Below, one piece after another: positions 170 through 61,838 of a stretch of DNA of 64,000 bases (the first letter of the stretch is position 1; each line of letters starts with the position of its first letter). The notes under the pieces were generated by a model. That model was not told the DNA's origin and did not search any database. It was given only the letters and a program-made list of their open reading frames with translations. This stretch comes from a virus, in IMG/VR virus record IMGVR_UViG_3300027714_002832; one strand, 5' to 3'. The position numbers and the translations under genes were made by a program.

Positions 170-844
170 TTGTTCAAGGGAATATATAATCTTTTTAAGC
201 AGAAAGAAGAGCCTATAGCAGAGATGATTGAAATCCCTGTTAAAAAACCAGAATTACCTCATATTGTGTTTATACATGGTGCTGGATGTAGTCATCGCAG
301 TTGGAATTATATATTAGCAAAACTTAACCCTACTCGTTACACTATGTTAGAGTATTCGATAGATGATAAGTTTTATACTAATCTAAATAAACTGTCGACT
401 ATTGTTGGTCAAATACATGATAGGGATTTATTTATAATATCTCATTCTATGGGTGGCATATATGCATTGCATTTATGTCAGAGTTTTAGTCATAGAGTAA
501 TTGGTTCAATATCTATCGCGACTCCGTTTGCGGGATCTAGAACAGCAGATTTTGTAAAATATGTGTATCCATCGTACATGTTGTTTCGGGATGTTGGAGT
601 AAGAAGTGCGCCTATTATGAGGTGTCATGATATTACAATCAATGTACCTTGGACACAGATAGTTACGACAGATGGGTATGTACCGTGGCATAAGGGTGAG
701 AACGATGGTGTTGTGACGGTAGAAAGTCAGCGTCATCGTAAAGATATAGATTATGTAGAAATACATGTAACCCACCATGAAGCGTTGGTGAGTGATGAAG
801 CATTAGATATTATAAAAGAAAAATTAGATATCAAAAACGCTTGA
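170..844 (+). CDS. alpha/beta-fold hydrolase (esterase/lipase-like)
   Basis: 224-aa ORF with HG oxyanion motif (FIHGAG) and nucleophile elbow SHSMGG typical of alpha/beta hydrolases. Confidence 0.6.
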   Translation: MFKGIYNLFKQKEEPIAEMIEIPVKKPELPHIVFIHGAGCSHRSWNYILAKLNPTRYTMLEYSIDDKFYTNLNKLSTIVGQIHDRDLFIISHSMGGIYALHLCQSFSHRVIGSISIATPFAGSRTADFVKYVYPSYMLFRDVGVRSAPIMRCHDITINVPWTQIVTTDGYVPWHKGENDGVVTVESQRHRKDIDYVEIHVTHHEALVSDEALDIIKEKLDIKNA

Positions 845-869
845 CAGAACGCGTTACATAGTGTATAAT
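841..869 (+). promoter_or_regulatory. sigma70-like promoter upstream of tRNA cluster
   Basis: TTGACA 841-846, 17-nt spacer, TATAAT 864-869. Confidence 0.5.
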
Positions 870-2334: not shown

Positions 2335-2681
2335 CAGTACCATTATTCAATAAGACATTCAAATTATTTGTATTTAAGGGTGATAACGAAGTAAGTATAT
2401 CACTTAGAATCACCGATAAATGTTGTAGATCATTCATGATGCCATTAGAAGATTTCACGTATATCATTAACAATTGGCGCACAGGTGTTGATGGTAGAAA
2501 CATAGATGGTAATCGTTGGTGGTGGGAATACAGAGATTGTGGTCCGAGACCAGAAATAGCCCCAGCAGATTTTGTATCTATTAGTGTACATGGATGGAAC
2601 TGGCGCGTTACGGTAGCAGAGATGGAAGAGTTAGAAAGTGCATTTAATTTTCAGTTAATCAATAAAAATCATTGGGATTAA
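2331..2681 (+). CDS. hypothetical protein
   Basis: 116-aa ORF, ATGA overlap with upstream gene. Confidence 0.45.
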   Translation: MTVPLFNKTFKLFVFKGDNEVSISLRITDKCCRSFMMPLEDFTYIINNWRTGVDGRNIDGNRWWWEYRDCGPRPEIAPADFVSISVHGWNWRVTVAEMEELESAFNFQLINKNHWD

Positions 2682-2693
2682 CTAAATAAGTGT

Positions 2694-3185
2694 ATGGGAA
2701 AAATAATAAAATCAATTAGTCTAACACAACTCGTATTTACGTTGATATTTTTATCTATGTTTACGGCTATTGGCTTAAATATATATCTATATGTGAAGTT
2801 ACATCAAGCATGGCCATTAGAACATTTCAATGGTAATATAGAAACTCCTGTTGATATATCGGTTGATAAAACGATTGTTGCATCTGGTACATTTAATCGT
2901 CGTGTGGCATGTGAAATGTATAATTTCAGTTTGCAGTTACGAAATGTAGACACGAGAGATATAATTATATTAAATCCCGAACATTTAGCAACGGCACCTA
3001 CCACTACGATGTCACCAGCGAAAGATATAGATGTTAATTTTTCGCTACATATTCCAAGTAATCTATATGTTGGATTTTGGACACCTACATTCACTGGGCA
3101 CTATATCTGTAAAAGCGGTATGTTCACACAAAATAAGACTCAGCGCCTCGTCGTTGATTCATTCGAAGTAATCAAATCTAAATAA
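2694..3185 (+). CDS. hypothetical membrane-anchored protein
   Basis: 163 aa, N-terminal hydrophobic helix. Confidence 0.45.
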   Translation: MGKIIKSISLTQLVFTLIFLSMFTAIGLNIYLYVKLHQAWPLEHFNGNIETPVDISVDKTIVASGTFNRRVACEMYNFSLQLRNVDTRDIIILNPEHLATAPTTTMSPAKDIDVNFSLHIPSNLYVGFWTPTFTGHYICKSGMFTQNKTQRLVVDSFEVIKSK

Positions 3186-3202
3186 TCAAAAATAGGTAAT
3201 AT

Positions 3203-4066
3203 ATGAACTTATTAAAAAATATTGAATTGAAAGAAATTCAATCTACTGGTAGACCAGTGATTTTTAAGCACCCATCATTAATCGCCAACTTTCCTGACAG
3301 ACTAGACAAAGCAAAAACACTATTTGATCAGATGACAGTACCAATGTGTGAAAAATATAATAAATTTGATTTTGAAGATGAACATTTCAGAACAGATCAT
3401 TGGGAAGACGAAGAAGTACCTGATAAGATCTACGCACATCGCTATGGTGGTCCTGCATTCAGTTATGACATAGATACTATGGTAGGTCCTCAAGATTGGG
3501 AAGGTGATGGCGATGCTACCAAAGTAGGCGATCATGTGCTAAGACGTAAGATTTATCTGTATGATTGGACACGCGAGCGTATGAAAGATGGCAACATACA
3601 ACCAACCGCAGAAATGGAATATTTCTTGGACTTGCTTGATGTAGTTAAACCTATATTAGAACATTATAACAAAGAATGTTTATCAGATCAAACAGATAAA
3701 GTTAAGTTTTATCTTATTAAGATGATGTTGATCGAGTATAGCACACCGTGTGCGACAGATGATAATGTAGTAGAGCATAGGAAATTTAACACTGATCGTT
3801 TCGGTCCGTCTCATTGCGATGAAGCATTGTTGGGATTGCACGTTGGTGAGAGTATTAAAGAAATACAGACACGAAACCATGTTACTGGTGAATGGACTTA
3901 TTTACCAGATAATGAGACATCACTTCTATTGTTTGGCGAAGATGCTGCAAAGAGTGACTGGGACCCGACCTATCATCGTATGATTCACAATCCAAATGGT
4001 GGGTCATCAGATTCACGTTATGTGATTCTAATAGATTATCAAGCACGTTACAAAAATAATGATTAA
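3203..4066 (+). CDS. hypothetical protein
   Basis: 287-aa ORF, acidic, no motif recognised. Confidence 0.45.
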   Translation: MNLLKNIELKEIQSTGRPVIFKHPSLIANFPDRLDKAKTLFDQMTVPMCEKYNKFDFEDEHFRTDHWEDEEVPDKIYAHRYGGPAFSYDIDTMVGPQDWEGDGDATKVGDHVLRRKIYLYDWTRERMKDGNIQPTAEMEYFLDLLDVVKPILEHYNKECLSDQTDKVKFYLIKMMLIEYSTPCATDDNVVEHRKFNTDRFGPSHCDEALLGLHVGESIKEIQTRNHVTGEWTYLPDNETSLLLFGEDAAKSDWDPTYHRMIHNPNGGSSDSRYVILIDYQARYKNND

Positions 4067-4069
4067 GTG

Positions 4070-4098
4070 TTGACAAACAGCCACTTAGTTGATATAAT
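4070..4098 (+). promoter_or_regulatory. sigma70-like promoter upstream of clpP
   Basis: TTGACA 4070-4075, 17 nt, TATAAT 4093-4098. Confidence 0.55.
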
Positions 4099-4130
4099 AG
4101 TTCATAACCTAAATCGGAGTAGTAAATAAT

Positions 4131-4745
4131 ATGTTAGTACCAACAGTAGTAGAATCAACAGGACGTGGAGAACGCGCTTATGATATTTATAGTCGCTTGC
4201 TTCGTGATCGGATTATTATGCTCAATGGAGAAGTAAACGATCACACCGCAAACCTAATCGTAGCACAGATGTTATTTTTGGAATCAGAAAATCCATCAGA
4301 AGACATCAATTTTTACATCAATAGTGGCGGTGGTTCTGTCACCGCTGGACTTAGTATCTATGATACTATGCAGTATATCAATTCACCAGTGTCTACCATC
4401 GTAATGGGACAAGCGTGTTCAATGGGATCATTGTTATCGCAAGCGGGCGCTCCAGGAAAGCGATTTGTTTTACCTAACAGTCGTACTATGATTCATCGTG
4501 TTAGTTCGGGCACTCAGGGTACACGTGGTAGTATTCATGTACAAGAACTTGAGTTTGAAGATGCAAAGCGACATATGGATGAGTCAGTTAATTTGAACAA
4601 TCGTCTTACGCAGTTGTATGTAGATCATAGCAGCAAAGGAAAATCATTTGATGAGTTTTATGCTACTATGAAGCACGACACTTTCATGTCAGCACCAGAA
4701 GCAGTTGAATTTGGTCTTGCTGATAAAGTGATTGCTAAGATCTAG
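4131..4745 (+). CDS. clpP: ATP-dependent Clp protease proteolytic subunit ClpP
   Basis: [16 protein letters not shown]..., [21 protein letters not shown] (Ser), MIHRV (His) blocks of ClpP/S14. Confidence 0.9.
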
Positions 4746-4851
4746 ATTGATCAGAAGTTGGACAGTCAGTTCAACTTCATTTAGTCCCGCTAATGATAAA
4801 TATGTATATCAGTCATATTATTGTGACATTAATATAAAAGGAATTTAATCA

Positions 4852-5703
4852 ATGACGTACAGACACGACCACAAAGATCCAAATATGAGTGGATCACAAA
4901 AAGCATTAAAATATGACGTAGATGGTGAACCAACATTGCGCGTAAGCATTGAGGAGATGGCTTCTAATTTGGTTACGCCTGTTGGCTCAAACAAGCCATA
5001 CTTGCTAGAAGTAGCACAGGGATTAATTCCAGGATACGGTTGCAACCACAAGTTTGGTGCAGTGCCCACTATGAGTAATAACACCACAGGTAGTGTATGG
5101 GATGTTCCTAACACAGTATACCCATTTAACGCATTTGGTGCTGGTAGTGTTATCAACGTTGAACGTACTAATGCAGCAGATGTAGGTAGTGTAATTAGAA
5201 TGCAAGGCTTAGATGTAAACTTTAATTTCATCGAAGAAGACATCCCACTTAATGCGAGAGACCAAGTAGGCACACTGGTATTCATTAGATTAAACAGAGC
5301 GTTCATGGTTACTGATGGTGGATCAAACCTTGGCGACATTAATTTTGAAATTGGTGTACCAGGCGGTGTAACGATTGCTCGTATAACAGAAGGTTATGGA
5401 CAGACGCTTATGGCAGTGTACACAGTGCCTGCAGGCGTAACAGCATATTTACTTAATATTTCTGCTACTGCATCAGATGACGCAGATGCCACAATCTCAC
5501 TATTAAAACGTGAGCCTTCTAGTGACGTTTTTAGAATAATGACAACATTTGAATTACAACAACGTGGCGGCGGATTTACACAAGAGTTCCCTTGTGCACT
5601 AAAGATCGTAGAAATGACAGACATTGATTTGAGAGTTATTTCACGTGCAAGTGGCAAGCGTTTCACGGGAACATTTGATATGCTATTAGTAGATAATGTA
5701 TAA
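4852..5703 (+). CDS. hypothetical protein (possibly structural)
   Basis: 283-aa ORF, Gly/Val-rich, no catalytic motif. Confidence 0.45.
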   Translation: MTYRHDHKDPNMSGSQKALKYDVDGEPTLRVSIEEMASNLVTPVGSNKPYLLEVAQGLIPGYGCNHKFGAVPTMSNNTTGSVWDVPNTVYPFNAFGAGSVINVERTNAADVGSVIRMQGLDVNFNFIEEDIPLNARDQVGTLVFIRLNRAFMVTDGGSNLGDINFEIGVPGGVTIARITEGYGQTLMAVYTVPAGVTAYLLNISATASDDADATISLLKREPSSDVFRIMTTFELQQRGGGFTQEFPCALKIVEMTDIDLRVISRASGKRFTGTFDMLLVDNV

Positions 5704-5711
5704 ATAAGTAT

Positions 5712-6398
5712 ATGAGATTACATAATTTATTTGAAAACAACAAACCAATATTAGATGAGGGTCCAAAAGATCCTCATATCTTTAAATCAGTATTTCTTGC
5801 GGGCGGACCAGGTTCTGGTAAAAGTTTTGTAGCAGGTAAATTACTTAAAGGCGGCGGTCTTAAAGTAGTTAATTCTGATGATATTTACGAATACTTAATG
5901 AAACAGCAGAACTTAGAAATGGACCCAGAGACTATTTTTAGTCCTCAAGGTCAAGCAATTCGTGATAAAGCGAAAGGTCTAACAGGCATCCGTCAAGGCG
6001 GATTTCTAGATGGTCGTTTAGGTCTTGTTATAGACGGAACTGGTAAAGATACTGGTAAAGTAAAAAAGGAAAGTGATAAACTACGTGATTTAGGTTATGA
6101 TACGATGATGGTATTCGTTAATACTAGTTTAGAAGTAGCACAAGCGCGAAATCAAGCACGATCTAGAAAACTTGCACCAGAAGTAGTTGAGGCGATGTGG
6201 AATAAAGTTCAACAGAACATAATGAAATTCCAGCAAATCTTTGGCGCGGCGAACTTCCATGTTATTGATAATTCTGGTGGATTAGAAGACCCAGATAGAG
6301 CAGAGAATTTCGATACCGTATATAAAGAAATACAAAAGTTTATTAATACACCACCATCAAGTCATATTGCTAAAAAATGGCTAGATAATAATAAATAA
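5712..6398 (+). CDS. P-loop NTPase, nucleotide-kinase-like
   Basis: Walker A GGPGSGKSF near N-terminus, small size. Confidence 0.55.
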   Translation: MRLHNLFENNKPILDEGPKDPHIFKSVFLAGGPGSGKSFVAGKLLKGGGLKVVNSDDIYEYLMKQQNLEMDPETIFSPQGQAIRDKAKGLTGIRQGGFLDGRLGLVIDGTGKDTGKVKKESDKLRDLGYDTMMVFVNTSLEVAQARNQARSRKLAPEVVEAMWNKVQQNIMKFQQIFGAANFHVIDNSGGLEDPDRAENFDTVYKEIQKFINTPPSSHIAKKWLDNNK

Positions 6399-6502
6399 TT
6401 CTATAACATATTAAACCATCTTATAACTAAGAACTCATGTATTGCTAAATATAGATATATGGGTTTTTTTATGCCTGTAACATAATAAGAGGAACACATA
6501 TC

Positions 6503-6847
6503 ATGTATACATATCGTGTTAAATTAGTAAGAGTAATAGACGGTGACACCATTGATGCAGAAATCGATCTAGGCTTCAATGTGGTGATGAGACAGCGAAT
6601 TAGATTGTACGGTATAGCGACACCAGCGACTCACACAAAAGATTTAGAAGAAAAAGAGCGTGGTCTAGCATCAAAGCAGCGCCTGACCGAACTATTACCA
6701 AAAGAGTTTATTGTTGAAACAATATTAAACAAGCGTGGAAAGATTGGTAGAATAATGGGCATCGTGTATGTAGAAGAATATGATACGTCTATCAATATCA
6801 ATGATGTAATGGTTGAAGAAGGTCACGCAATTAGGTATAATAAGTAG
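6503..6847 (+). CDS. staphylococcal-nuclease (SNase/thermonuclease)-like protein
   Basis: VIDGDTID...RIRLYGIATPA resembles SNase V(I)DGDT and DTPE blocks. Confidence 0.5.
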   Translation: MYTYRVKLVRVIDGDTIDAEIDLGFNVVMRQRIRLYGIATPATHTKDLEEKERGLASKQRLTELLPKEFIVETILNKRGKIGRIMGIVYVEEYDTSININDVMVEEGHAIRYNK

Positions 6848-6857
6848 AGGATAAATT

Positions 6858-8414
6858 ATGAGATATTTTGGTATTTGGACAGTTTTTGTAGCATTAACTA
6901 TTAGCGTAGTAGCAGCGTATTATTCAATCATTGGACTAGTTGCTATATTCGCCGCATCAATGGTTCCTGTCATAATCATGGGCAGTGTATTAGAAGTAGG
7001 CAAAATAACAACCGCAGTATGGTTACATAAGTACTGGGATAAAGCAACATTCTTGATGAAATCTTATTTAACTATTGCTGTACTGTTACTCATGTTTATT
7101 ACTAGTATGGGTATTTTTGGTTTCCTATCTAAAGCACATATTGAACAGACAGCAATGGCTGGTGAAGGTGTAGCACAATTGGAACGTGTGGAAGCCGATA
7201 TTGCACGAAATCAATCAGTTATCGCTCGTGCAGATGATAAGATGATCAAACTAGAATCATCAGATGAAACAATAGATACCAATATTCAAACAAAGATTGC
7301 GACAGAAGAAAATCGTATCGCAGGGAAGTCACAGAGATTACAAACAGCAATAGCAGAACAAACAGCAGCGATAGAGTTAGCAGTTGCACCGTATATGACA
7401 CAGCAACAAGCAGCAGACAATGCACTCGCATTAATGAATGGGTTTGTTCAGAATAATGAAATTAAGAAGATACAAGGATTAATTGGCGAAGTACAAGATG
7501 GTTCATATGGAACAAAGACTGCCACTGGAGTTAAGGAATATAGAAATAACCTACTTGATGAACGTGCAACAGCCTTATCTATTGTCAATGAATTACGAGC
7601 AGATACCAGAACTGAAATCGCTAGACTACGTGCAAATTTTGAACAACAGGTAGAATCATCGAATGCACTGATTAGTCGAATGACAACTGAACTTAGCGTA
7701 GTTGAACGTGTAGACACAGAAGCAGACATAACTGCATTGCAATTGAAAATTAAGAATTCAGAAGAATCACTTGACAAACTCTATGAAACAAAGTATACTA
7801 TAGAGACTGAAAGCAGAAAGTTAGAAGCCGAAGTAGGACCTGTTAAATACATAGCAGCATTAATATATGGTGATGATCCTACTAAAGACACATTGGAAGA
7901 TGCTGTACGATGGATTATTATGATACTTGTAGTTGTGTTTGATCCGTTAGCCGTTGTATTAGTAATTGCGGGCATTTCTATTCTTGAGCAAAAGAAAGTG
8001 AACGTAGTACGTGATGATCAGGCTGAATACGATAGAGCAAGAGTACAGCGTATGGTTGATAATACACCTCATAAAGAAGTGGTGGTTGAGTCAATTGAAG
8101 TTGCTGAAAAAGAAACTTCAACAGTAGAAACAGAATTAGAGCGTGAGATTCGTGAATTAAATGAACAACGTGAATTAAATGAATCAAGTCGTAGCATACA
8201 AAAAGAAGCAAATCAGCAAGCATTATTGCTTGTTAAAGATATATCAAATCGCATGATTCAAAGCGGAAGTAATATCACATGTATCAGTGATGTAATAGCA
8301 TCAGACGATACAGGAACCCTGAAGCAGTTATTAGAGGGTGCTGATAAAGACACATTGAATGATGTACAAACTATTATAGCAAACACAATTAATCAAATAC
8401 AGGAAAGTAAATGA
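6858..8414 (+). CDS. membrane protein with long coiled-coil regions
   Basis: 518 aa; three N-terminal TM helices, heptad-rich middle, internal TM WIIMILVVVFDPLAVVLVIAGISIL, acidic C-term. Confidence 0.5.
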   Translation: MRYFGIWTVFVALTISVVAAYYSIIGLVAIFAASMVPVIIMGSVLEVGKITTAVWLHKYWDKATFLMKSYLTIAVLLLMFITSMGIFGFLSKAHIEQTAMAGEGVAQLERVEADIARNQSVIARADDKMIKLESSDETIDTNIQTKIATEENRIAGKSQRLQTAIAEQTAAIELAVAPYMTQQQAADNALALMNGFVQNNEIKKIQGLIGEVQDGSYGTKTATGVKEYRNNLLDERATALSIVNELRADTRTEIARLRANFEQQVESSNALISRMTTELSVVERVDTEADITALQLKIKNSEESLDKLYETKYTIETESRKLEAEVGPVKYIAALIYGDDPTKDTLEDAVRWIIMILVVVFDPLAVVLVIAGISILEQKKVNVVRDDQAEYDRARVQRMVDNTPHKEVVVESIEVAEKETSTVETELEREIRELNEQRELNESSRSIQKEANQQALLLVKDISNRMIQSGSNITCISDVIASDDTGTLKQLLEGADKDTLNDVQTIIANTINQIQESK

Positions 8415-8854
8415 AGCAAGACAACAGTAGTTATACAATAACAAATCCTGATCTATTTTTAACAAATGATGGGATTTCTGTATTAATCACGAGTACTAAC
8501 AAAGAATTCATTGACGAAGTAAAATTAATAGTAGAGCATCACATTGAACATAGTATTGTGTTTAATGTGCAGCCTTCTAGCACCACCGAAACAGGTGTTC
8601 CCTGGATGTGGTATGTGAGTCGTGCAGTTGACATTATGTTTGTTGATTTAGACACATGTGCTTGGGTAGACATTTGTACTGCATTGACAAAAGAACAGGA
8701 TGATAATCATGTTGTTGTGTTTTTTAGTGACAGGAACAAAAAACGCGATGCTATTAAATTGATAAATGCAACGAGTAAGTATATTATACTGAAAGATATT
8801 AAAGAGATCAGTGCATACATGGAAACACATGTTCAACTGTCTGCTCCTTTATGA
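8411..8854 (+). CDS. hypothetical protein
   Basis: 147-aa ORF, ATGA overlap. Confidence 0.45.
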   Translation: MKQDNSSYTITNPDLFLTNDGISVLITSTNKEFIDEVKLIVEHHIEHSIVFNVQPSSTTETGVPWMWYVSRAVDIMFVDLDTCAWVDICTALTKEQDDNHVVVFFSDRNKKRDAIKLINATSKYIILKDIKEISAYMETHVQLSAPL

Positions 8855-10080
8855 CAGAAATGTTAAAATGCGCATTTTGTCATAAGACACAAAAGCAAGT
8901 TTCTAAGTTACTTGCTGGTATAGACGAGCATATTTATATTTGTAATAAATGTGTTCATTTGTCACACAGCATTTTAGAGAAAGAAGATAAAACAAAAACA
9001 CTCAAAGATAAGAAACGTAAGTTACGTGATATTTTTGATACTGTCCCACCTAAACAAGTCCATGAATATTTAAACGAACATGTGATTGGTCAAGAAAAAG
9101 TTAAGAAAGGAATTAGTGTAGCAATATACAATCATTGTAAGAGAATCTTTAATGACACCGTTGTGCAAGTACAAAAATCAAATGTATTACTATTGGGTCC
9201 TACAGGTGTTGGTAAAACACTTATTGCACAAACGCTAGCAAGTTCAATGGATGTGCCATTCGTCATTACAGATGCAACTACGATTACTGAAAGTGGTTAT
9301 GCTGGAGATGATGCAGAAGTATTGATACATAAGTTATTCCAAAATTCTGATTATGATATTGCACGAACCGAGATTGGTATCATCTACGTAGATGAGATAG
9401 ACAAGAAAGCCAAGCGTAATGACATGGTAAGTTTAAGTCGTGATGTATCAGGCGAAGGTGTTCAACAAAGTTTACTGAAACTCATGGAAGGCACCACCAT
9501 CGCAGTACCTAATAAACATGATAGATCTCCTGAAAAAATAGATATAAATACAGAGAACATCTTATTCATTGTGGGCGGTGCTTTTATTGGATTAGAGAAA
9601 GTAGTTGAGCAGCGTCTAGGTAAATCAAAAATAGGATTTACTGGAAAAATGGCAAGCAAAGATTATAATTGGGAAGATGAACTTGAAACGAGTGATCTAG
9701 TTCAATATGGTCTAATACCAGAATTCTTAGGAAGATTACCATCAGTTAATGTATTACATGAATTATCTAAAGATGATTTGGTGCGTGTGTTGACTGAACC
9801 GAAAAATAGTATTGTAAAGCAATATCAAGCATTATTTGAATTAGATAATGTTAGTTTAGAATTTAAGCCATCTGCATTAAGAGCAATCGCAGAGACTTCT
9901 ATTAAGCAAGATCTAGGTGCAAGGGGATTACGCAAAATAATCGACAATGCACTCATTGATACACAATATGAATTACCCGACCTTGTAAGACAAGGCGTTC
10001 AGAAGATTATTATTAGTGAAGAAACTATAACTAGAGGAACAACACCACACATGATCAAAGGATCCATAAGTGAAAAATAA
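8851..10080 (+). CDS. clpX: ATP-dependent Clp protease ATP-binding subunit ClpX
   Basis: N-terminal C4 zinc finger CAFCHK...CNKC, Walker A LLGPTGVGKT, ClpX-type IGF/sensor blocks. Confidence 0.9.
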   Translation: MTEMLKCAFCHKTQKQVSKLLAGIDEHIYICNKCVHLSHSILEKEDKTKTLKDKKRKLRDIFDTVPPKQVHEYLNEHVIGQEKVKKGISVAIYNHCKRIFNDTVVQVQKSNVLLLGPTGVGKTLIAQTLASSMDVPFVITDATTITESGYAGDDAEVLIHKLFQNSDYDIARTEIGIIYVDEIDKKAKRNDMVSLSRDVSGEGVQQSLLKLMEGTTIAVPNKHDRSPEKIDINTENILFIVGGAFIGLEKVVEQRLGKSKIGFTGKMASKDYNWEDELETSDLVQYGLIPEFLGRLPSVNVLHELSKDDLVRVLTEPKNSIVKQYQALFELDNVSLEFKPSALRAIAETSIKQDLGARGLRKIIDNALIDTQYELPDLVRQGVQKIIISEETITRGTTPHMIKGSISEK

Positions 10081-11240: not shown

Positions 11241-11244
11241 ACAC

Positions 11245-11273
11245 TTGACAAGTAAGAAGCCTTGGTATATAAT
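11245..11273 (+). promoter_or_regulatory. conserved phage promoter module
   Basis: ACACTTGACAAGTAAG..17 nt..TATAAT then GTTATATAAGTTAATTAAAG. Confidence 0.6.
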
Positions 11274-11307
11274 AGTTATATAAGTTAATTAAAGCAAGGA
11301 AGTTATT

Positions 11308-11894: not shown

Positions 11895-11911
11895 TCAATT
11901 ACATTAAACCC

Positions 11912-11940
11912 TTGACAAGTAAGGCTTATTGTTATATAAT
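11912..11940 (+). promoter_or_regulatory. conserved phage promoter module
   Basis: CTTGACAAGTAAGG, 17 nt, TATAAT 11935-11940. Confidence 0.6.
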
Positions 11941-11971
11941 ATTTATATAATTTAATCAAAAGGAAGTTATC

Positions 11972-12143: not shown

Positions 12144-13394
12144 ATGCAACCGTTTGAACTATTGGATAGGTTTGAACTGATGTACCCTAACAACAGTAAG
12201 TTATCAGATCTGCGTAGGGCATACATTGACAAAGATCTAAGTAGTATCTTTCGATTACTACCAGCAGGACATAACGACTTACGTAAGGCAGTGATAGAAC
12301 AAAACTTACATAGTATCTTTCGATTACTACCAGAAAAACATGAAGACTTACGTAAGGCGGTGATAGAACAAAACTTACATAGTATCTTTCGTTTGCTACC
12401 AGCAGAGCATGAAGAACTAGGCAGAGCAGTGATAGAACAAAACTTGCATAGTATCTTTCGATTACTACCAAATGTTAGTAATGATGATCTTGAAGACTTA
12501 CGTAAGGCAGTGATAGAACAAAACTTGCATAGTATCTTTCGTTTGCTACCAGACGAGCATGAAGAACTAGGTAGAGCAGCAATAGAACAAAACTTACATA
12601 GTATCTTTAGACTAGTAGACGATGAAGACTTGCGTAGAGCAGTGATAGAACAAAACTTGCATAGTATCTTTAGACTAGTAGATGATGAAGAATTACGCAA
12701 ACTACTATTAGAAGATAATATTTGGAAGTTATGGCCTGTGCTATCTAGATACACTGATACACAGTTCGTTGAAGCATTCAAAAACTTCTTTGTCAATGAT
12801 ACTGAGATATGGGATGATTGTTTCGCAAGAGGACAGTTAGAAAGTAAACTATGGTTAGTGCGTGAATTGCAACAATGTAATATACCACTAGGCACTGTGT
12901 TTATTTGTGCGGGCTGGTATGCAACTATCGCTACTATGTTGTTTGAGAGCGACATGGAAATAGATAAGATTCGCAGTTTTGATATTGATACTACTTGTGC
13001 AGAAATCGCAGAAGTGTTTAATAAGCCTTGGGTAGTAGATGGATGGAAGTTTAAAGCGGCTTACAAAGATATACACGATATTGATTTCACAGGAAAAACA
13101 CCCTATAGTGTTTATAAATCAAATGGCGAAGAGCAATTGTTATGTGATAGTCCAGACACTGTTATAAACACAAGTTGTGAGCATATTGATAACTTTGAAG
13201 CATGGTATTCCAAGATACCAGATGGTAAATTGGTGATATTACAAAGTAATAACTTCTATGAAGTGGATGAACACGTAAATTGTGTTGCAGATGTTGATGA
13301 ATTTATTGACACTGCGCCTATGAGTACTGTATTGTACAGTGGAGAATTAGAGTTGCCTAAGTATACTAGGTTTATGATAATTGGATATAAGTAA
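12144..13394 (+). CDS. tandem-repeat protein (N-terminal repeats of the AVIEQNLHSIFRLLP motif, C-terminal globular domain)
   Basis: 416 aa; RBS AAGGAA upstream; about 7 consecutive 21-22-aa repeats LRKAVIEQNLHSIFRLLPxxHE(D/E). Confidence 0.7.
   Translation: MQPFELLDRFELMYPNNSKLSDLRRAYIDKDLSSIFRLLPAGHNDLRKAVIEQNLHSIFRLLPEKHEDLRKAVIEQNLHSIFRLLPAEHEELGRAVIEQNLHSIFRLLPNVSNDDLEDLRKAVIEQNLHSIFRLLPDEHEELGRAAIEQNLHSIFRLVDDEDLRRAVIEQNLHSIFRLVDDEELRKLLLEDNIWKLWPVLSRYTDTQFVEAFKNFFVNDTEIWDDCFARGQLESKLWLVRELQQCNIPLGTVFICAGWYATIATMLFESDMEIDKIRSFDIDTTCAEIAEVFNKPWVVDGWKFKAAYKDIHDIDFTGKTPYSVYKSNGEEQLLCDSPDTVINTSCEHIDNFEAWYSKIPDGKLVILQSNNFYEVDEHVNCVADVDEFIDTAPMSTVLYSGELELPKYTRFMIIGYK
12213..12714 (+). repeat. 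in-frame tandem DNA repeats (about 63-66-bp units, about 7 copies) inside the CDS
   Basis: repeated GCAGTGATAGAACAAAACTT(A/G)CATAGTATCTTTCG(A/T)TT(A/G)CTACCAG units. Confidence 0.8.
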
Positions 13395-14987: not shown

Positions 14988-16052
14988 ATGAACGCAGTTA
15001 ACGCTTGGACAGAGTTTCAACCATTGAAGAAAGTAGTATTGGGTGCACCATTCCCAGAAACTGCATTTGATTGGCACGAAGATGAAGAGACACGAGACAC
15101 TATGCGACAAATCTTCCGTGAAACAGCCGAAGATATTGAAGTACTAGCACAACTATTAGAAGCACGTGGAATTGAAGTGGTACGTCCCAAGAACATCTTT
15201 ACAATCACTGGTGAAGAACAGATTCAATTACCGTGGGCTCATTGTGCGTTTCCGAACCATCCATTAATGCCGCGCGATACGTTGATGCCATATGGTCATT
15301 CAATTTTTGAATGCTTTACAGGCGGTGACAATCGTTACTTTGAAAACCTAGCATACTATGATCACGTAGTAGAATGGTTTAAACAAGGTGCTGATTGGAT
15401 TTCAATGCCTGGCTGCATGGTAGAAACTGGTAAAGGATATGATGAATACGTAGCAGAGCAGCGTGTACTGTATCATGCTGCAAATATGATCAAGTGTGGT
15501 GATACTATCTTATTCAGTCAACCATACGAAGGTGACAACAAGCGTGGACGTGGTACGAATTTGGGCAAGGAATGGATGCAAAGAGAAATCAAACAGCGTT
15601 ATCCTGATACTAAATTTATTGATATTCCAATTGGTGGTCACATAGATGGTAAGATTGCATTATTGAAGCCGGGTGTTCTTATGACGTGGAACAAAGCATG
15701 GGTCCCAGAAGAATTCAAGAATTGGACAATCATTGAAGTAGAAGATGATTTTGACATGCCAGCAGATTTTCAAAATACACGTAAGCGTAGATACTATAAA
15801 GAGTATGTACAGAAGTGGTTAAGTCATTGGGTAGGTTATGCAGACGAGTCTGTATTTGATGTTAATGTATTATCATTGGATGAAAAGACGGTAATCTGTA
15901 CAGGTAAAAACGATGCAGCATTTGCTGAAATGGAAGCAAACGGAATTGAACCAATTGTTTGGCGATTCCGTCATCAGTATTTTTGGGATGGTGGTATCCA
16001 TTGCTTGACTAGTGATATCGTACGTGAAGGTAATTGTGAGAATTATTTATGA
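14988..16052 (+). CDS. amidinotransferase / guanidino-group-modifying enzyme superfamily protein
   Basis: C-terminal GGIHCLTSDIVREG resembles the catalytic-Cys GGxHCxT motif of amidinotransferases/ADI/DDAH. Confidence 0.55.
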   Translation: MNAVNAWTEFQPLKKVVLGAPFPETAFDWHEDEETRDTMRQIFRETAEDIEVLAQLLEARGIEVVRPKNIFTITGEEQIQLPWAHCAFPNHPLMPRDTLMPYGHSIFECFTGGDNRYFENLAYYDHVVEWFKQGADWISMPGCMVETGKGYDEYVAEQRVLYHAANMIKCGDTILFSQPYEGDNKRGRGTNLGKEWMQREIKQRYPDTKFIDIPIGGHIDGKIALLKPGVLMTWNKAWVPEEFKNWTIIEVEDDFDMPADFQNTRKRRYYKEYVQKWLSHWVGYADESVFDVNVLSLDEKTVICTGKNDAAFAEMEANGIEPIVWRFRHQYFWDGGIHCLTSDIVREGNCENYL

Positions 16053-17083
16053 GTATGCTATGGCGTGATAATATACAAAGCCTACAAGTAGATGTTACTA
16101 GTTATTGTAATGCTAAGTGTGGTGGATGCGCTAGAAATGACGACGGTCATGAAACAAGACCGGGTCTTATTCTTGAAAACTTTGATGTTGATGTATGGAA
16201 TCGTATGGCAGAGCATGATACCAAAGATATTTTTATTAATGAACTGGTATTAAACGGGAATTGGGGTGACTCTATGATGCATCCTAAAATTAAAGATATG
16301 GTTACAACATTTGCAAAATTTCATCCAGAAGCGAGTTTATATATCCATACCAATGGCAGTATGCGCACGACCAAATTCTGGGCTTCTTTTGCCAAAGTTT
16401 GTCGTCAATTCTCAAATCATCGTGTAGTTTTTGCAGTAGACGGTCTAGAAGATACACATGCGATATATCGTCGTAATACCGACTTTCTTAAAATTATGGA
16501 GAATATTAAAGCATTCACCGATGCGAATGGACGAGCGAGTGTAACCATGACCCTATTTGAACACAATAAACATCAAGTAGAAGAAGTTAAAAAAATAGCA
16601 CAATCGCTTAATGCAGATTTTACCTTACGTTACAGTCATGGAGATGGACTAGAAGTAATTGCGCCTGGCGAAAATTATATGATATATGCATGTGATGAAT
16701 TGCCCGAAGAGGAGGTAGAAGTAGAGCATGATAATTATAGATTAAGTGATTTACCAAATTATATGGATAATCTAATTATATCAGATGCAATAGAACCTGT
16801 CGCATCAACATGTCCGTGGTTAGCAGATCGTCAAGTGCAAATTGATCCATGGGGTACGGTGTGGCCATGTTGTCATATTAGTAATCATGCAAATTCCTTT
16901 TCATCAGAGTATACTGGGATCGCCGCAACTGATGATAATTTCGATGAAGGTAAACTAGCAAATAACCTGAAGCATACGCCGTTATATGATATCCTTAGTA
17001 ATCGGTGGTATGCGGATGTGTTACCTGATGCGGTAAAACATGAAAAATGGCTAGTTTGTCGTGATTCATGCTTTAGTGATTAA
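16049..17083 (+). CDS. radical SAM enzyme with C-terminal SPASM/twitch-like motif
   Basis: CNAKCGGC (Cx3Cx2C); C-terminal CPW...GTVWPCCH and CRDSC; paralogue of ORF 1309-2334. Confidence 0.8.
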   Translation: MSMLWRDNIQSLQVDVTSYCNAKCGGCARNDDGHETRPGLILENFDVDVWNRMAEHDTKDIFINELVLNGNWGDSMMHPKIKDMVTTFAKFHPEASLYIHTNGSMRTTKFWASFAKVCRQFSNHRVVFAVDGLEDTHAIYRRNTDFLKIMENIKAFTDANGRASVTMTLFEHNKHQVEEVKKIAQSLNADFTLRYSHGDGLEVIAPGENYMIYACDELPEEEVEVEHDNYRLSDLPNYMDNLIISDAIEPVASTCPWLADRQVQIDPWGTVWPCCHISNHANSFSSEYTGIAATDDNFDEGKLANNLKHTPLYDILSNRWYADVLPDAVKHEKWLVCRDSCFSD

Positions 17084-17087: not shown

Positions 17088-17116
17088 TTGACATACACCA
17101 CCAATTGCTGTATAAT
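17088..17116 (+). promoter_or_regulatory. sigma70-like promoter
   Basis: TTGACA 17088-17093, 17 nt, TATAAT 17111-17116. Confidence 0.55.
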
Positions 17117-17146
17117 ATGTATATACATTAATAACTTGAGAGAAAT

Positions 17147-17500: not shown

Positions 17501-17513
17501 TATGTTATTAACT

Positions 17514-17541
17514 TGACATAATATATAAATAATAGTATAAT
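17514..17541 (+). promoter_or_regulatory. sigma70-like promoter
   Basis: TTGACA 17514-17519, 16 nt, TATAAT 17536-17541. Confidence 0.5.
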
Positions 17542-17564
17542 AACTTCTACGATAGGAATTACGA

Positions 17565-18011
17565 ATGGCATATTTTTCAAAAAAACACTATGGTCATAGC
17601 ATTGGGTTATCCTCAGTATTTAGACAGCCGAATGCAGATCATTCACATTGTCACCTACTACATGGGTATAGTTTAGCATTTACATTTACATTCGGTTGTA
17701 CAGAACTAGATGATAAGAACTGGGCTGTTGACTTCGGTGGATTAAAACCATTGAAGAAATGGCTTGAAGACAACTTTGATCATAAGACTGCAATTGACAA
17801 AGATGATCCGTTCTTAGCAAAGTTTATGGAACTTGAAGAATTAGGATTAGCAGAGATTGTAGTAATGAATGGTGTTGGTACAGAGAAGTTTGCTGAACAT
17901 GCATTTAACTTTGCAGATGATCTTGTTCGCAAGATGACTAGTGATCGTTGTTATTGTGTACGGGTAGAATGTGCAGAACATGACTCAAATTCAGCAGTAT
18001 ACGAACGATAG
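17565..18011 (+). CDS. 6-pyruvoyl-tetrahydropterin synthase / QueD-like protein
   Basis: HYGHS, HCHLLHGYS (Cys and His zinc ligands) and NWAVDFGGLKP blocks of PTPS/QueD family. Confidence 0.65.
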   Translation: MAYFSKKHYGHSIGLSSVFRQPNADHSHCHLLHGYSLAFTFTFGCTELDDKNWAVDFGGLKPLKKWLEDNFDHKTAIDKDDPFLAKFMELEELGLAEIVVMNGVGTEKFAEHAFNFADDLVRKMTSDRCYCVRVECAEHDSNSAVYER

Positions 18012-21492: not shown

Positions 21493-21982
21493 TCAACAAA
21501 TGGTATTGACAGAGCGCGATGTAATTAGATCTTGGCTCTCAGATATACGCATCAACAAGGCGCAGTTTGAAGATATTGAACCAATTAATATCTATAATGA
21601 ATGGTGCACCGAGTATGAAATAGGAAATCCTATTGATGCTACCATAGCAGATGATTCAGATGGTTACGTTGAGAAATGCATTAACAATTGGCATATGCCC
21701 GATGAGTATCATCAATATAACATTCGCAATCATTTAGAGAATCTATGTAAAACAAAAGAAGAATTAACACGTGTTCGATATGAATTAGAATTGTATGAAG
21801 ATCGTGGATTGATAATTGCTCTTAATTTTCTAAGATATCTTGAACGAGTATGTGATGATAATGATATTGTATTGGGCGTAGGTCGTGGTAGTAGTGTATC
21901 TAGTTATTGTCTATATCTTCTAGGAATTCATAGAGTAAATAGTATTAAGTACGAACTAGACATAAAGGAGTTTTTAAAATGA
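21452..21982 (+). CDS. hypothetical protein
   Basis: 176-aa ORF. Confidence 0.45.
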   Translation: MAISMVNSMMMNSNQQMVLTERDVIRSWLSDIRINKAQFEDIEPINIYNEWCTEYEIGNPIDATIADDSDGYVEKCINNWHMPDEYHQYNIRNHLENLCKTKEELTRVRYELELYEDRGLIIALNFLRYLERVCDDNDIVLGVGRGSSVSSYCLYLLGIHRVNSIKYELDIKEFLK

Positions 21983-22437
21983 AAAGTGCAAAAACAGCGT
22001 TAGGTAGAACGATCAACATGGCAGCGTTAGCATCTAAAAATGAAACAACTCGTGCAGTGAGTAATATCCCTGTAAATGCGAGGGGTGATATTATTGATAA
22101 TCGTGGTAATGTTAAAATATCAAAAGAAACAATTGCTAAAGAATTCAATAAAGATGTTCTTACTGGTGTAGAAGAGAACATTAGCATCAAAGATGAAAAT
22201 TCAACTACCACACCTAAACAGAAAAAAACAGAATCCGCTATTGACACGGATGTGCTTGACGTGTATAATGATGATAGACTAAGTACACCAACTGATATAA
22301 GTAATTTATCACTTGATGAAACAGTTATCGAAGTGAATCGTACGCTACGTACACGTGAAGATGGTGCATCATATCATGAAATCGAATACTCAGATGGTAG
22401 CATGACAGAAGAGTTCTACACAGACGGTCCCATTTAA
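21979..22437 (+). CDS. hypothetical protein
   Basis: 152-aa ORF, ATGA overlap. Confidence 0.45.
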   Translation: MKSAKTALGRTINMAALASKNETTRAVSNIPVNARGDIIDNRGNVKISKETIAKEFNKDVLTGVEENISIKDENSTTTPKQKKTESAIDTDVLDVYNDDRLSTPTDISNLSLDETVIEVNRTLRTREDGASYHEIEYSDGSMTEEFYTDGPI

Positions 22438-24229: not shown

Positions 24230-24601
24230 ATGTTAAATAAAATATACAGCGTTATTGGTAACTTTTTTCTGAAACGTACTGATGAATATTGGCAAGAATG
24301 TGATTACGGCGAATGTGACGATGTTCCATTTAGTACTAGTAGGTTTGGGCGTAACGTTGGTGCCACTACTACGAAGTTGAAGAATCAAAGTCACCATCAA
24401 CTCACACCTGACACAGACCCATCATTCAATATCCGTATATATTCTGCAAAAGGTGGTCGCGTAGTTGAATGTCATACAACTACTAATCACGCTAATCAGC
24501 AATTCCAAGGTAGTAGTACAGACTTATATGTAATACCAGATGGTACTGATTTAGTTGATGAACTTGGTAAAATCTTAATGATGCACTCCTTGACAAAGTA
24601 G
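24230..24601 (+). CDS. hypothetical protein
   Basis: 123-aa ORF. Confidence 0.45.
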   Translation: MLNKIYSVIGNFFLKRTDEYWQECDYGECDDVPFSTSRFGRNVGATTTKLKNQSHHQLTPDTDPSFNIRIYSAKGGRVVECHTTTNHANQQFQGSSTDLYVIPDGTDLVDELGKILMMHSLTK

Positions 24602-24618
24602 TAAAACTAGTGTATAAT
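24590..24618 (+). promoter_or_regulatory. sigma70-like promoter
   Basis: TTGACA 24590-24595, 17 nt, TATAAT 24613-24618. Confidence 0.5.
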
Positions 24619-24650
24619 ATCTTATTAACAACTTAAATTAGGAATAGCAT

Positions 24651-29930: not shown

Positions 29931-29946
29931 CACATCTTATGTAAAA

Positions 29947-29971
29947 AAAGACGCTAAATGCGTCTTTTTTA
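29947..29971 (+). terminator. rho-independent terminator
   Basis: AAGACGC-TAAAT-GCGTCTT hairpin then TTTTTT. Confidence 0.8.
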
Positions 29972-29994
29972 TTGCATTTATTTTACTCAAACAC

Positions 29995-30023
29995 TTGACA
30001 AGTAAGACGCATTGCGTTATAAT
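29995..30023 (+). promoter_or_regulatory. conserved phage promoter module
   Basis: ACACTTGACAAGTAAG, 17 nt, TATAAT then GTTACATAAGTTAATTAAAG. Confidence 0.6.
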
Positions 30024-30055
30024 AGTTACATAAGTTAATTAAAGCGAGAAAGATT

Positions 30056-32065: not shown

Positions 32066-32094
32066 TTGACAAGTAACACTCGTCATGCTATAAT
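32066..32094 (+). promoter_or_regulatory. sigma70-like promoter upstream of prs
   Basis: TTGACAAGTAAC, 17 nt, TATAAT 32089-32094. Confidence 0.55.
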
Positions 32095-32127
32095 AACTGA
32101 CATCATGAATATAAAGGATTTAATAAA

Positions 32128-37404: not shown

Positions 37405-37611
37405 ATGAGTACATTAGATAGTTTAACACACCATAAAGAAGTACTAGAACAACGTCATCGTTTATTAGATAAGGTCATTGCTGACATGTATAAACAAAAT
37501 TCAGATGATGTATTACTACATACTATGAAAAAAGAAAAGTTACAACTACGTGACGAAATTGAAGTAATGAATATTCAATTGGAACAAAATAAATCAAAAA
37601 CTTTCAATTAA
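37405..37611 (+). CDS. hypothetical coiled-coil protein
   Basis: 68-aa ORF. Confidence 0.4.
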   Translation: MSTLDSLTHHKEVLEQRHRLLDKVIADMYKQNSDDVLLHTMKKEKLQLRDEIEVMNIQLEQNKSKTFN

Positions 37612-37614
37612 CAC

Positions 37615-37643
37615 TTGACAAGTAACTCATATTGTTATATAAT
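37615..37643 (+). promoter_or_regulatory. conserved phage promoter module
   Basis: ACACTTGACAAGTAAC, 17 nt, TATAAT 37638-37643. Confidence 0.6.
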
Positions 37644-37777
37644 ATCTATATTAAATAAGGAAGTAATTATGTTTTGGTTATTACACGCAGCAGCATTAAT
37701 CGTTATGCCTCTTGCATTATTTGTGACTATACCACTACATCTCATTTCTAATCAACTATAGTTAAGGAATTAACAAT

Positions 37778-39916: not shown

Positions 39917-39970
39917 TTAAGATAAGTGGTCGACGATTCACAAAATTCGCAGTTACTAATGGAGATTAAA

Positions 39971-42720: not shown

Positions 42721-43524
42721 TTTGCGTTGTTTAATCTTTTCAATATAATTAGTACTTAGGTGATCATAAATCCCATCAAAAAATTGAAACTTACTCCATG
42801 CTTTAAATGTACCTTTTACTTTATCAACAAATCGTTGCCACCAAGTAAGATCAGTTAATATTTTAAAATCATAAGTTATATAATTTAACTGTCCAACATG
42901 ACGATAATATCCTAATATCGGAACTTGTGGTATAATGTCATTATTGTTTACGAAGCGATATGCTTCTATGTTATCAAACTGTACACCCCATTCCTTATTG
43001 CCTGTTCTTGGGCATCCATATGTATACAATACCAAATCTGCGTCTAATTTAGCCACCCTACTTGCAAGGATAGTTGCCATTGCAGCACCTAGACTATGTC
43101 CTGTTATAACAAGTTTTTTAGTGGTTACTCGCTTACCTAACCATTTAATAATTGATGGGTATAACTTATCAATTTCTGTTTTAAATCCATAGTGTACATA
43201 ACCAACTGTTTCACTATCGGATGGCCATGCTTTAATGTCTGCTAACATATCTTTTGCTTGTGTTGGCTCGGTTCCTCGTAATGCTATAACTATATAGTCT
43301 GGCATAACAATACCATATCCTTGTGCACTATCGTTTGTAAAAAACTTGATACTAGAATATTTTATATTATTATCTTTTAAGTATGCAGACATTCTTGCTT
43401 TATCATAATATGCTTCATCGCATAAATGTGCACATAATTCTGCAATTTTCCAATCTACTTCTTTATTTTGTGGCATGTAATATCTCCAATTATGTATATA
43501 TTTAGTCAAATAAAGTGTTGACAA
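42718..43524 (-). CDS. class-3 lipase (alpha/beta hydrolase)
   Basis: nucleophile elbow ITGHSLGAAMATILA, Lipase_3-like context. Confidence 0.7.
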   Translation of the reverse strand: MSTLYLTKYIHNWRYYMPQNKEVDWKIAELCAHLCDEAYYDKARMSAYLKDNNIKYSSIKFFTNDSAQGYGIVMPDYIVIALRGTEPTQAKDMLADIKAWPSDSETVGYVHYGFKTEIDKLYPSIIKWLGKRVTTKKLVITGHSLGAAMATILASRVAKLDADLVLYTYGCPRTGNKEWGVQFDNIEAYRFVNNNDIIPQVPILGYYRHVGQLNYITYDFKILTDLTWWQRFVDKVKGTFKAWSKFQFFDGIYDHLSTNYIEKIKQRK

Positions 43525-43546
43525 GTAAGGCTTCTTATTGTATAAT
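43518..43546 (+). promoter_or_regulatory. conserved phage promoter module
   Basis: GTGTTGACAAGTAAGG, 17 nt, TATAAT then GGTTACATAAGTTAAT. Confidence 0.6.
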
Positions 43547-43577
43547 GGTTACATAAGTTAATAAAGAGAGCAAGACT

Positions 43578-43718: not shown

Positions 43719-43725
43719 TTAGGGG

Positions 43726-43754
43726 TTGACACGTAAGGCTCCTTATAGTATAAT
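43726..43754 (+). promoter_or_regulatory. conserved phage promoter module
   Basis: GGTTGACACGTAAGG, 17 nt, TATAAT then GGTTACATAAGTTAATTAAT. Confidence 0.6.
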
Positions 43755-43793
43755 GGTTACATAAGTTAATTAATGAAAGAAAGAGAGAACGAT

Positions 43794-61752: not shown

Positions 61753-61807
61753 GGTAATCCCCTATAAGTTTTATATATGTATATGTATGTATTATAACAT
61801 TGATACT

Positions 61808-61838
61808 ATTATATACTATGTTTATATGTTCTGTCAAG
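61808..61838 (-). promoter_or_regulatory. candidate sigma70-like promoter for minus-strand island
   Basis: minus-strand TTGACA (61838-61833), 16-18 nt, TATATAAT (about 61815-61808). Confidence 0.4.

Follow-up and report, generated by a model that had tools for sequence, protein, structure and literature searches.

The promoter early stem-loop elements (PeSLs) of the T4-type phages RB49 and phi1 are cassettes with stop codons upstream in AT-rich DNA, hexamers that match the sigma-70 consensus, and a Shine-Dalgarno (SD) sequence with an ATG at the 3' end (PMC2839356). The stem-loop is most often located in the interval that separates the -35 from the -10 hexamer (PMC2839356). PeSLs are found preferentially before ORFans in hyperplastic regions, and flanking copies recombine with each other (PMC2839356; PMC4122927), with crossovers mapped between the -10 hexamer and the ATG (PMC2839356); such elements also occur in the PST/T4 and nt-1/KVP40 genomes (Arbiol et al. 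2010, PMC2839356; Comeau et al. 2014, PMC4122927). This report deals with a promoter-leader module of similar layout that recurs along a stretch of 64,000 nucleotides from the IMG/VR virus record IMGVR_UViG_3300027714_002832, hereafter called the window. The module consists of a TTGACA-N17-TATAAT core with dyad symmetry in its spacer, a conserved block downstream of the -10 hexamer, and a short leader that ends in a ribosome site and an ATG.

Coliphage T5 provides a second point of reference. At its N25 promoter, initiation is limited at the step of promoter escape, and replacement of the native initial transcribed sequence lowers the output about tenfold (PMC12464699). Along these lines, a large screen led to the initial transcribed sequence being counted as part of the promoter (PMC5961368). 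The nearest cultured relative of the window genome is the jumbo phage PA5oct (Pseudomonas, Arenbergviridae), with a clamp loader that is 53% identical. PA5oct is sensitive to rifampicin and relies on the host RNA polymerase (Lood et al. 2020, PMC7318152), and around its transcription starts, 32 putative promoters have been placed that have TTGAC and TATAATA as their motifs (PMC7318152).

Consensus Promoters in the Window

Judged by its sequence, the module is a promoter cassette of the PeSL type in which the initial transcribed region resembles that of T5; it is carried by a clade of uncultured marine jumbo phages akin to PA5oct and is, as such, a known kind of element. With a probability of roughly 70%, each copy would serve as a self-contained cassette for the expression of early genes by the housekeeping (sigma-70-type) RNA polymerase of the host. 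Geometry and copy number were read directly from a census of the window, in which 13 perfect TTGACA-N17-TATAAT cores were found, all of them on the plus, coding strand (at 841, 4070, 11245, 11912, 17088, 17513, 22241, 24590, 29995, 32066, 37615, 43518 and 43726), in contrast to about 0.05 perfect cores estimated from base composition. Together with one 12/12 site that has an 18-bp spacer, all lie within the 17 ± 1 bp expected for sigma-70 hexamers. Weaker promoter-like matches did not exceed their shuffled controls (91 vs 90.8, 92 vs 98.4 and 80 vs 95.3), so that the cores scoring 12/12 form a separate population. The window has about 36% G+C, and its genes are encoded on the plus strand up to approximately 47.3 kb and on the minus strand thereafter. 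All but one of the 13 cores are intergenic; eleven lie upstream of the start of an open reading frame (ORF), with 17-28 nt between the predicted transcription start and the ATG, and the core at 841 precedes a cluster of tRNA genes. The placement is as expected for sigma-70 promoters, with a gene on the same strand downstream, room for a leader, and an SD-like AAGGA or GAGAG.

Four of these promoters, at 11245, 29995, 43518 and 43726, share far more than the hexamers. In a 55-bp frame they are pairwise identical at 39-49 positions, and 35 of the 55 columns are invariant. The 22-mer TATAATRGTTAYATAAGTTAAT occurs in four exact copies in the window, and in five copies if up to three mismatches are allowed, with 0.02 expected. 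Both the repetition of a module and the presence of conserved sequence beyond the hexamers, as claimed in an earlier note written from the letters of this stretch, are confirmed by these numbers; the list of sites given there has to be amended. Of the five long sites named, the four above stand, but the fifth copy with conservation on both sides of the core is 11912, which differs from the 22-mer by two mismatches, and not 37615. The latter had been called a partial long copy; it shares ACACTTGACAAGTAA, i.e. the 5' half, and nothing further. Among the sites said to keep a motif in addition to the -10 hexamer, 32066 shares TTGACAAGTAA only, whereas 4070, 17088 and 24590 lack TTGACAAGTAA and share just the two hexamers. 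A length of about 55 bp was the right frame for the conserved columns but too short for the unit itself, some copies being identical as far as the ATG, about 70 nt in total. The tetranucleotide ACAC before the -35 hexamer is found only at 11245, 29995 and 37615, and long and simple copies have, outside the hexamers, only about 15 of 43 positions in common. The genes behind the long copies are all ORFans without a Pfam match, so that no connection of the type of module with gene function was found.

Anatomy of the Cassette

Nearly the entire gap between two genes is taken up by each module, with the upstream stop codon at one end and the ATG of the next gene at the other. The stop codon is placed 1-18 nt before the -35 hexamer or inside the module, where it may fall within TTGACA (at 841, where the TGA ends the upstream ORF), within the spacer (24590), or within TTGACAAGTAA (in an ORF inserted in the relative L016). 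The parts follow each other in the order stop codon in an A-rich stretch, -35, 17-bp dyad spacer, -10, six variable bases, block, leader, SD and ATG; a stop codon in or next to the cassette and an SD-ATG 3' end are both found in PeSLs. The predicted transcription start is the seventh nucleotide after the -10 hexamer, and the transcript would begin with the conserved ATAAGTTAAT(T)AAAG, followed by the remainder of an A/U-rich, C-poor leader that is 17-28 nt long and ends in a ribosome site of the AAGGA- or GAGAG-type and the ATG.

Across the window and its relatives, 73 distinct modules were compared for the position of the block. In 56 of them the block TAAGTTAA starts at the same offset from the -10 hexamer, six nucleotides after it, whereas block and ATG are separated by anything between 12 and 56 nt, most frequently by 16-18 nt. 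Because the former distance is fixed and the latter variable, the block belongs to the promoter and the transcription start, and not to the ribosome site. In line with the earlier proposal, the conserved downstream block covers the predicted transcription start and the 5' untranslated region. By analogy with T5 N25, the block would be a promoter part in a wide sense, governing the choice of the start site and fast escape; in addition, it would keep the ribosome site open.

A function of the block at the level of RNA was considered as well, either as a leader structure, as a processing site that equalizes the 5' ends of read-through transcripts and of those initiated at the module's own promoter, or as the target of a RegA-like translational regulator. 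It can be rationalized by the block being predicted to form the opening 10-15 nt of each transcript and being A/U-rich and single-stranded, like targets of S1 or RNase E or translational operator sites. Yet all twelve leaders folded less stably than their shuffled controls (positive z-scores throughout), no leader structure was found among them, and the block was unpaired in 11 of the 12 folds. An Rfam search of the window returned three tRNAs only, with no family matching the leaders. Furthermore, copies of the block away from promoters did not exceed chance, and its register is fixed to the -10 hexamer and not to the SD or the ATG, which makes a function of this kind scarcely credible. A structured leader RNA, one of the options raised previously, and membership in an Rfam family were both rejected on the basis of the folding and Rfam results.

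An intrinsic terminator upstream of the promoter was also examined as a possible constant part of the cassette and rejected, as it accompanies just one of the 13 window copies. In the relatives it is found at 4 of 67 promoters in subclade A and at 15 of 71 in subclade B. Subclade B (e.g. L045 at ~7460-7504, L052 and L110; L numbers denote loci of IMG/VR contigs) has a conserved hairpin, AACCCTTG-loop-CAAGGGTT, with a T run that ends about 14 nt before the -35 hexamer in those 15 promoters and forms a composite terminator-promoter unit.

The Initial Transcribed Region of T5

The PN25 sequence was verified at 100% identity in T5 genomes. In the T5 record, the -10 hexamer of PN25 and the block downstream of it are annotated as 'repeat c copy 6', while the labels 'repeat b' or 'repeat c' are attached to further early promoters; reuse of a -10 hexamer with a block of about 20 nt among the promoters of one genome (PN25, P25, P26 and others) is thus common to T5 and the window. 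The T5 promoters read TATAAT-AGATTC-ATAAATTTGAGAGAGGAG, TATAAT-ATTTAT-ATAAATTAATGAGAG and TATAAT-ATTTAT-ATAAATTGATAAGGAAG, compared with TATAAT-AGTTAC-ATAAGTTAATTAAAGCGAGAAAG in the window, i.e. TATAAT, six nucleotides, ATAA(A/G)TT and further bases, and then a purine-rich SD. The block resembles the T5 consensus (ATAAATTTGA / ATAAATTAAT); over the 20 nt that follow the -10 hexamer, the mean identity between window and T5 promoters is 9.31, vs 6.84 ± 0.38 for shuffles (P = 0.0005), and the best pair, site 11912 and T5 promoter P35, agrees at 17 of 20 positions. On the other hand, the -35 hexamer of T5 is a non-consensus TTGCTT with a strong A/T block upstream, in contrast to the perfect TTGACA described here, and T5 spacers are devoid of the GTAAG/CTTAC dyad. 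A module comprising the -10 hexamer and the leader, in the same layout, is reused in the T5-like vibriophage D419. Recurring in distant phage lineages, a T5-like initial transcribed sequence appears to contribute to the productivity of a consensus promoter.

Distribution and Conservation

The 22-mer was found at 34 loci of viral contigs in IMG/VR, often several times per contig; the sample identifiers of these loci presumably refer, for the most part, to marine metagenomes. In 596 Gb of bacterial and archaeal DNA (185,579 genomes) there were two matches, both AT-rich and without a -35 hexamer, which gives an empirical chance rate for the 22-mer; as both are chance matches, the module was not taken from a host promoter represented in that collection. 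Searches of GenBank phages for near and distant DNA similarity to a 3-4 kb region gave no match, and two consensus sequences of the module gave chance-level matches only (E ≥ 0.4). A second scan of IMG/VR, with TTGACAAGTAAG-N11-TATAAT, retrieved a large group of contigs with AAAGG-TTGACA-AGTAAGACGTCTTGCCG-TATAAT-AGTAG-TATAAGTTAA. Loci of this group (L039, L045, L085, L091) have genes in common with the window at about 24-83%, mostly 40-65%, protein identity, and L039 shares a run of adjacent window genes. Being present at that distance, the spacer arms and the block have outlived a divergence that erases neutral intergenic DNA. Promoters in the loci of relatives that lie outside any of the scan patterns have the same consensus in a weak form.

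One locus of 10 kb (L013) contains at least nine modules within about 6 kb (1991-7860), on both strands and nearly one per small ORF; the contig from which it stems is 192 kb long and in other parts 97-99.8% identical to the window, and this region has the appearance of a hyperplastic early region that lies beyond the window. The many-fold repetition of a strong sigma-70 consensus promoter before small ORFs, as known for PeSLs, is accordingly found in this clade.

The -10 hexamer and the block were also encountered, with quite different spacers, in other lineages. In an unrelated phage group of 33-34% G+C, represented by loci of 5-13 kb (L001, L005, L012, L019, L027, L028, L032, L033), the head genes (portal, protease and HK97-type capsid) are preceded by TTGACT, a spacer of 16 nt that contains the palindrome ACCCAATATGGGT, and TATAATGGTTACATAAGTTAAT, as exemplified by L001 at 7045-7140 on the minus strand. 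The combination of -10 hexamer and block therefore extends outside the jumbo-phage clade, which argues against a site that is specific to this phage, as had been suggested. As the block occurs in an unrelated phage group and resembles that of T5, host machinery is indicated rather than a phage factor.

Recombination at the Modules

Comparison with close relatives demonstrates recombination between cassettes. Against loci that are 97-99.8% identical to the window, four indels were identified, two of them at modules. In L016, L003 and L025, the left edge of module 1 is the exact site at which an extra ORF of 462 bp is inserted, and this ORF terminates with the TAA of TTGACAAGTAA. In L022 and L011, the order is terminator, module A, extra ORF, module B and gene X, whereas the window has a single module, at 29995. 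The left part of this module, from the terminator to the spacer, matches module A (63/68 to L011_A), and the stretch to the right, which runs from the block into gene X, agrees with module B; this places the crossover in the common TATAAT and block. Sixteen mismatches are clustered in its -35 and spacer region, directly adjoining a flank that is identical at 215 of 215 positions. Cassettes thus lie at junctions of indels and replacements, as described for PeSLs. Of the remaining two indels, one is located at an SD/start sequence that is repeated and the other within a gene that contains repeats. In the relative L021 (6076-6293, compared with 45679-45699 in the window), an extra segment of about 217 bp, which may encode a small ORF, is flanked by a direct repeat of 21-24 nt of the ribosome-site/stop/start junction CAGATGGAGATAACACATAATG; judging from this segment, repeated translation-start regions serve as indel junctions as well, besides the promoter modules.

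Identical sequence from the -10 hexamer to the ATG before unrelated ORFs was seen in different genomes; that of module 3, for example, stands before unrelated ORFs in L008 and in L141 as well. As portable homology, the repeated cassettes are a substrate for homologous recombination that shuffles genes: an exchange between two of them inserts, deletes or swaps the gene that they enclose.

Such exchange raises the question whether copying might account for everything beyond the hexamers and the ribosome site, with these being functional and the remaining similarity due to duplication, gene conversion, exchange during co-infection (concerted evolution) and template switching that perfects palindromes. 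Identical copies of about 70 nt before unrelated ORFs would be in line with this proposal, as would module swaps, the hybrid module at 29995 with its clustered mismatches beside an identical flank, and the continuum from near-identical to degenerate copies, with low information outside the hexamers in unselected promoters. Block and spacer arms, however, persist between subclades with proteins that are 40-65% identical, the block keeps a single register relative to the -10 hexamer, and all twelve leaders are less structured than shuffles. Similar sequences after the -10 hexamer in coliphage T5, and the module of the same layout in D419, point in the same direction, and copying as the sole explanation is considered very unlikely.

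The Spacer Dyad

As a consensus, the 17-bp spacer reads AGTAAG-N4/5-CTTAC or, written as a dyad, rGTAAG-N4-CTTACy; position i pairs with position 17-i. In 58 distinct modules selected by the downstream block alone, symmetric Watson-Crick pairs numbered 240, vs 210.6 ± 7.5 in column shuffles, and cells changed on both sides numbered 45, vs 21.7 ± 6.4 (a value reached in 0 of 500 shuffles) and 13-29 in slid registers, whereby the shuffle controls overstate the significance because the aligned sequences are related. A dyad that is centred in the spacer and exceeds both shuffled and slid controls is a further trait in common with PeSLs. Several distinct perfect palindromes of 12-16 bp occur in the relatives (GTAAGACGTCTTAC, GTAAGGATCCTTAC, GTAAGATATCTTAC, TAAGGCGCCTTA and GGTAAAACGTTTTACC), and most window copies have one to three broken pairs. 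Away from promoters, no dyad beyond chance was found in the window. The hairpins predicted for the spacer, as RNA or single-stranded DNA, amount to -2 to -6.6 kcal/mol and are followed by no U tract. A strand-specific hairpin was rejected, as G-T pairs are not enriched (68 vs 72.1 in column shuffles); hence there is no indication which strand folds, if any.

The position between the -35 and -10 hexamers is that of a classic repressor site, and a dimeric protein of phage or host origin might bind the palindrome of the spacer (GTAAG-N4-CTTAC), and perhaps the +1 block as well, in order to switch the early promoters together, either off or on. In its favor, the dyad is real by the counts given above, several perfect palindromes are known, and the arms are kept across relatives at 40-65% protein identity. 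The broken pairs in the window copies and the relatedness of the aligned sequences weaken this argument, the dyad was not seen away from promoters in the window, and between the copies of one genome the centre of the palindrome varies freely, unlike what is usual when one protein recognizes a specific sequence. No candidate regulator was found, the genes behind the modules being devoid of Pfam matches, and the +1 block occurs in an unrelated phage group and resembles T5. Operators recognized by such a protein therefore appear unlikely. Known operators, those of LacI/PurR, TyrR and 434, were compared with the dyad and dropped, their spacings or half-sites being at variance with it. The arms are preserved across a deep divergence, and changes in the centre come as compensatory pairs. 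The palindromic spacer can also be read more broadly, not as a weak terminator but as the operator of a clade-specific global regulator or as a supercoil-sensitive DNA structure that would time the shut-off of dozens of early promoters, with the +1 block marking the transcripts for common handling; this reading is decidedly doubtful.

Assessment of the Cassette

The likeness to PeSLs, one argument for the reading of each module as an expression cassette for the host polymerase, extends from layout to behavior. The parts come in the same order (stop codon, TTGACA-N17-TATAAT with a dyad between the hexamers, SD and ATG), many copies stand before small ORFans, and cassettes mark the indel junctions between close relatives, with a crossover between the -10 hexamer and the ATG. 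In some copies, more of them in subclade B, the -35 hexamer is preceded at about 14 nt by a terminator hairpin with a T run, and gain, loss and swapping of genes by recombination between cassettes is the behavior described for T4-type phages. The window genome, in contrast, is not T4-type and belongs to an uncultured marine clade; residence in the hyperplastic regions of T4-type myoviruses was not found, T4-type phages being far more distant from it than PA5oct. The stem in the window is short, A/T-rich and weak, whereas that of RB49 is a stable polyG/polyC stem shown to terminate transcription, and the block after the -10 hexamer is far more conserved here than anything described for PeSLs. 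PA5oct, as the nearest cultured relative, provides the link to promoters with TTGAC and TATAATA motifs and to transcription by the host polymerase. With a layout that is that of sigma-70 early cassettes (PeSLs of RB49 and phi1) and a block that is T5-like (P = 0.0005), the contention of the earlier note that these sites are something other than plain sigma-70 promoters was not sustained.

Several points weigh against this reading. The analogy with PA5oct regarding the host polymerase spans only 53% identity of the clamp loader, and the first 50 kb of PA5oct contain few consensus cores, none with an AGTAAG spacer or a ATAAGTTAAT block, and no promoter found there carries the block. Early timing and use of the host polymerase are properties that we infer, and the role in escape would be transferred from T5 by analogy. 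In the large screen, higher duplex stability in the first ~10 bp favored escape (PMC5961368), and hence an AT-rich start is no general optimum. The information content beyond the hexamers is low outside the near-identical copies, so that part of the similarity is due to recent copying. Finally, promoter strength leaves the conserved dyad spacer, weak as an RNA hairpin, without an explanation. Current understanding is not overturned by any of these results.

For annotation, TTGACA-AGTAAG..CTTAC..-TATAAT-N6-ATAAGTTAAT provides a signature of putative early transcription units in a widespread clade of uncultured marine jumbo phages, and modular shuffling of the PeSL type reaches past the T4-type phages. 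The cassette is, furthermore, a candidate for a compact, strong expression unit in hosts resembling marine Gammaproteobacteria.

Features and Neighboring Genes

Table 1. Coordinates of promoter modules, consensus promoters and the associated terminator in the window.
Feature	Coordinates	Strand	Details
Long module 1	11241..11307	+	-35 11245-11250; spacer AGTAAGAAGCCTTGGTA; -10 11268-11273
Long module 1, 3' part	11274-11294	+	block AGTTATATAAGTTAATTAAAG at these coordinates; behind it SD AAGGAAG; ATG 11308 (121-aa ORFan, phrog_6045)
Long module 2 (hybrid)	29991..30055	+	-35 29995-30000; spacer AGTAAGACGCATTGCGT; -10 30018-30023; block 30024-30044; ATG 30056
Long module 3	43514..43577	+	-35 43518-43523; spacer AGTAAGGCTTCTTATTG; -10 43541-43546; block GGTTACATAAGTTAATAAAG; ATG 43578 (46-aa mini-ORF)
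Long module 4	43722..43793	+	208 bp past module 3; -35 43726-43731 (TTGACACGTAAG); spacer dyad TAAGGCTCCTTA; -10 43749-43754
Long module 4, 3' part			block GGTTACATAAGTTAATTAATG; ATG 43794 likely start; in-frame ATG at 43773
Diverged full module	11908..11971	+	TTGACAAGTAAGGCTTATTGTTA, TATAAT, ATTTATATAATTTAATCAAAAGGAAG; ATG 11972 (47-aa ORF)
Partial module	37611..37668	+	ACACTTGACAAGTAAC and -10, without downstream block; ATG 37669 (30-aa ORF)
Promoter with TTGACAAGTAAC and -10 only	32066..32127	+	before PRPP synthetase gene (ATG 32128)
Simple consensus promoter	841..869	+	three tRNA genes (919-1230) downstream, then terminator 1241-1258
Simple consensus promoter and leader	4070..4130	+	before ClpP gene (ATG 4131); block start degenerate AGTTCATAACC
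Simple consensus promoter	17088..17146	+	degenerate block ATGTATATACATTAAT; ATG 17147
Simple consensus promoter	17513..17564	+	before QueD/PTPS-like gene (ATG 17565)
Perfect 12/12 core within ORF 21979-22437	22241..22269	+	neither leader nor ATG behind
Simple consensus promoter	24590..24650	+	before gp44-like clamp-loader gene (ATG 24651); TAG stop of upstream ORF inside spacer
Intrinsic terminator	29944..29970	+	11-bp stem and T run, immediately upstream of module 2, the sole window module with one
Minus-strand consensus core	61808..61837	-	TTGACA-N18-TATAAT; only one on that strand; block absent

Regarding the promoters outside the long modules, the core at 22241 might be due to chance, or else serve 22437-23207 as an internal promoter. 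Within 61780-61837, the minus-strand core is followed by an unusual leader of AT/AC repeats, ATACATACATATACATATATA. The tRNA operon behind the core at 841 comprises two tRNA-Ala(TGC) genes of identical score and one tRNA-Thr(TGT).

Among the other genes of the window, those for radical SAM/SPASM proteins are unusually concentrated (1309-2334 and 16049-17083, and, on the minus strand, 51289-52551, 52514-53446, 55759-56985, 56972-58105 and 59504-60754); five of them have Pfam confirmation, and another two ORFs share tblastn targets in the loci of relatives with those five. Genes for iron-sulfur cluster assembly are found alongside, encoding a NifS/IscS-like cysteine desulfurase and a NifU/IscU-like scaffold (39926-41185 and 41229-41612). 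This gene set points to an extensive radical-SAM pathway carried by the phage, which would serve the maturation of peptides or the modification of nucleic acids. A gene similar to QueD/6-pyruvoyl-tetrahydropterin synthase (PTPS) at 17565-18011 has its own consensus promoter and, in conjunction with the radical SAM genes, hints at a DNA modification of the 7-deazaguanine type. With two ClpP-like proteases (4131-4745 and 23539-24219) and one ClpX-like ATPase with a zinc finger (8851-10080), the phage has its own Clp protease system. A full-length gene for an SbmA/BacA-like inner-membrane transporter (28866-29930, E = 4e-80), an odd cargo for a phage, lies directly upstream of the terminator and the module at 29995. 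Within the ORF at 12144-13394, which encodes a 416-aa ORFan, blastn gave off-diagonal matches at multiples of 69 bp over 12242-12699, from which about six tandem repeats of 23 aa are deduced.

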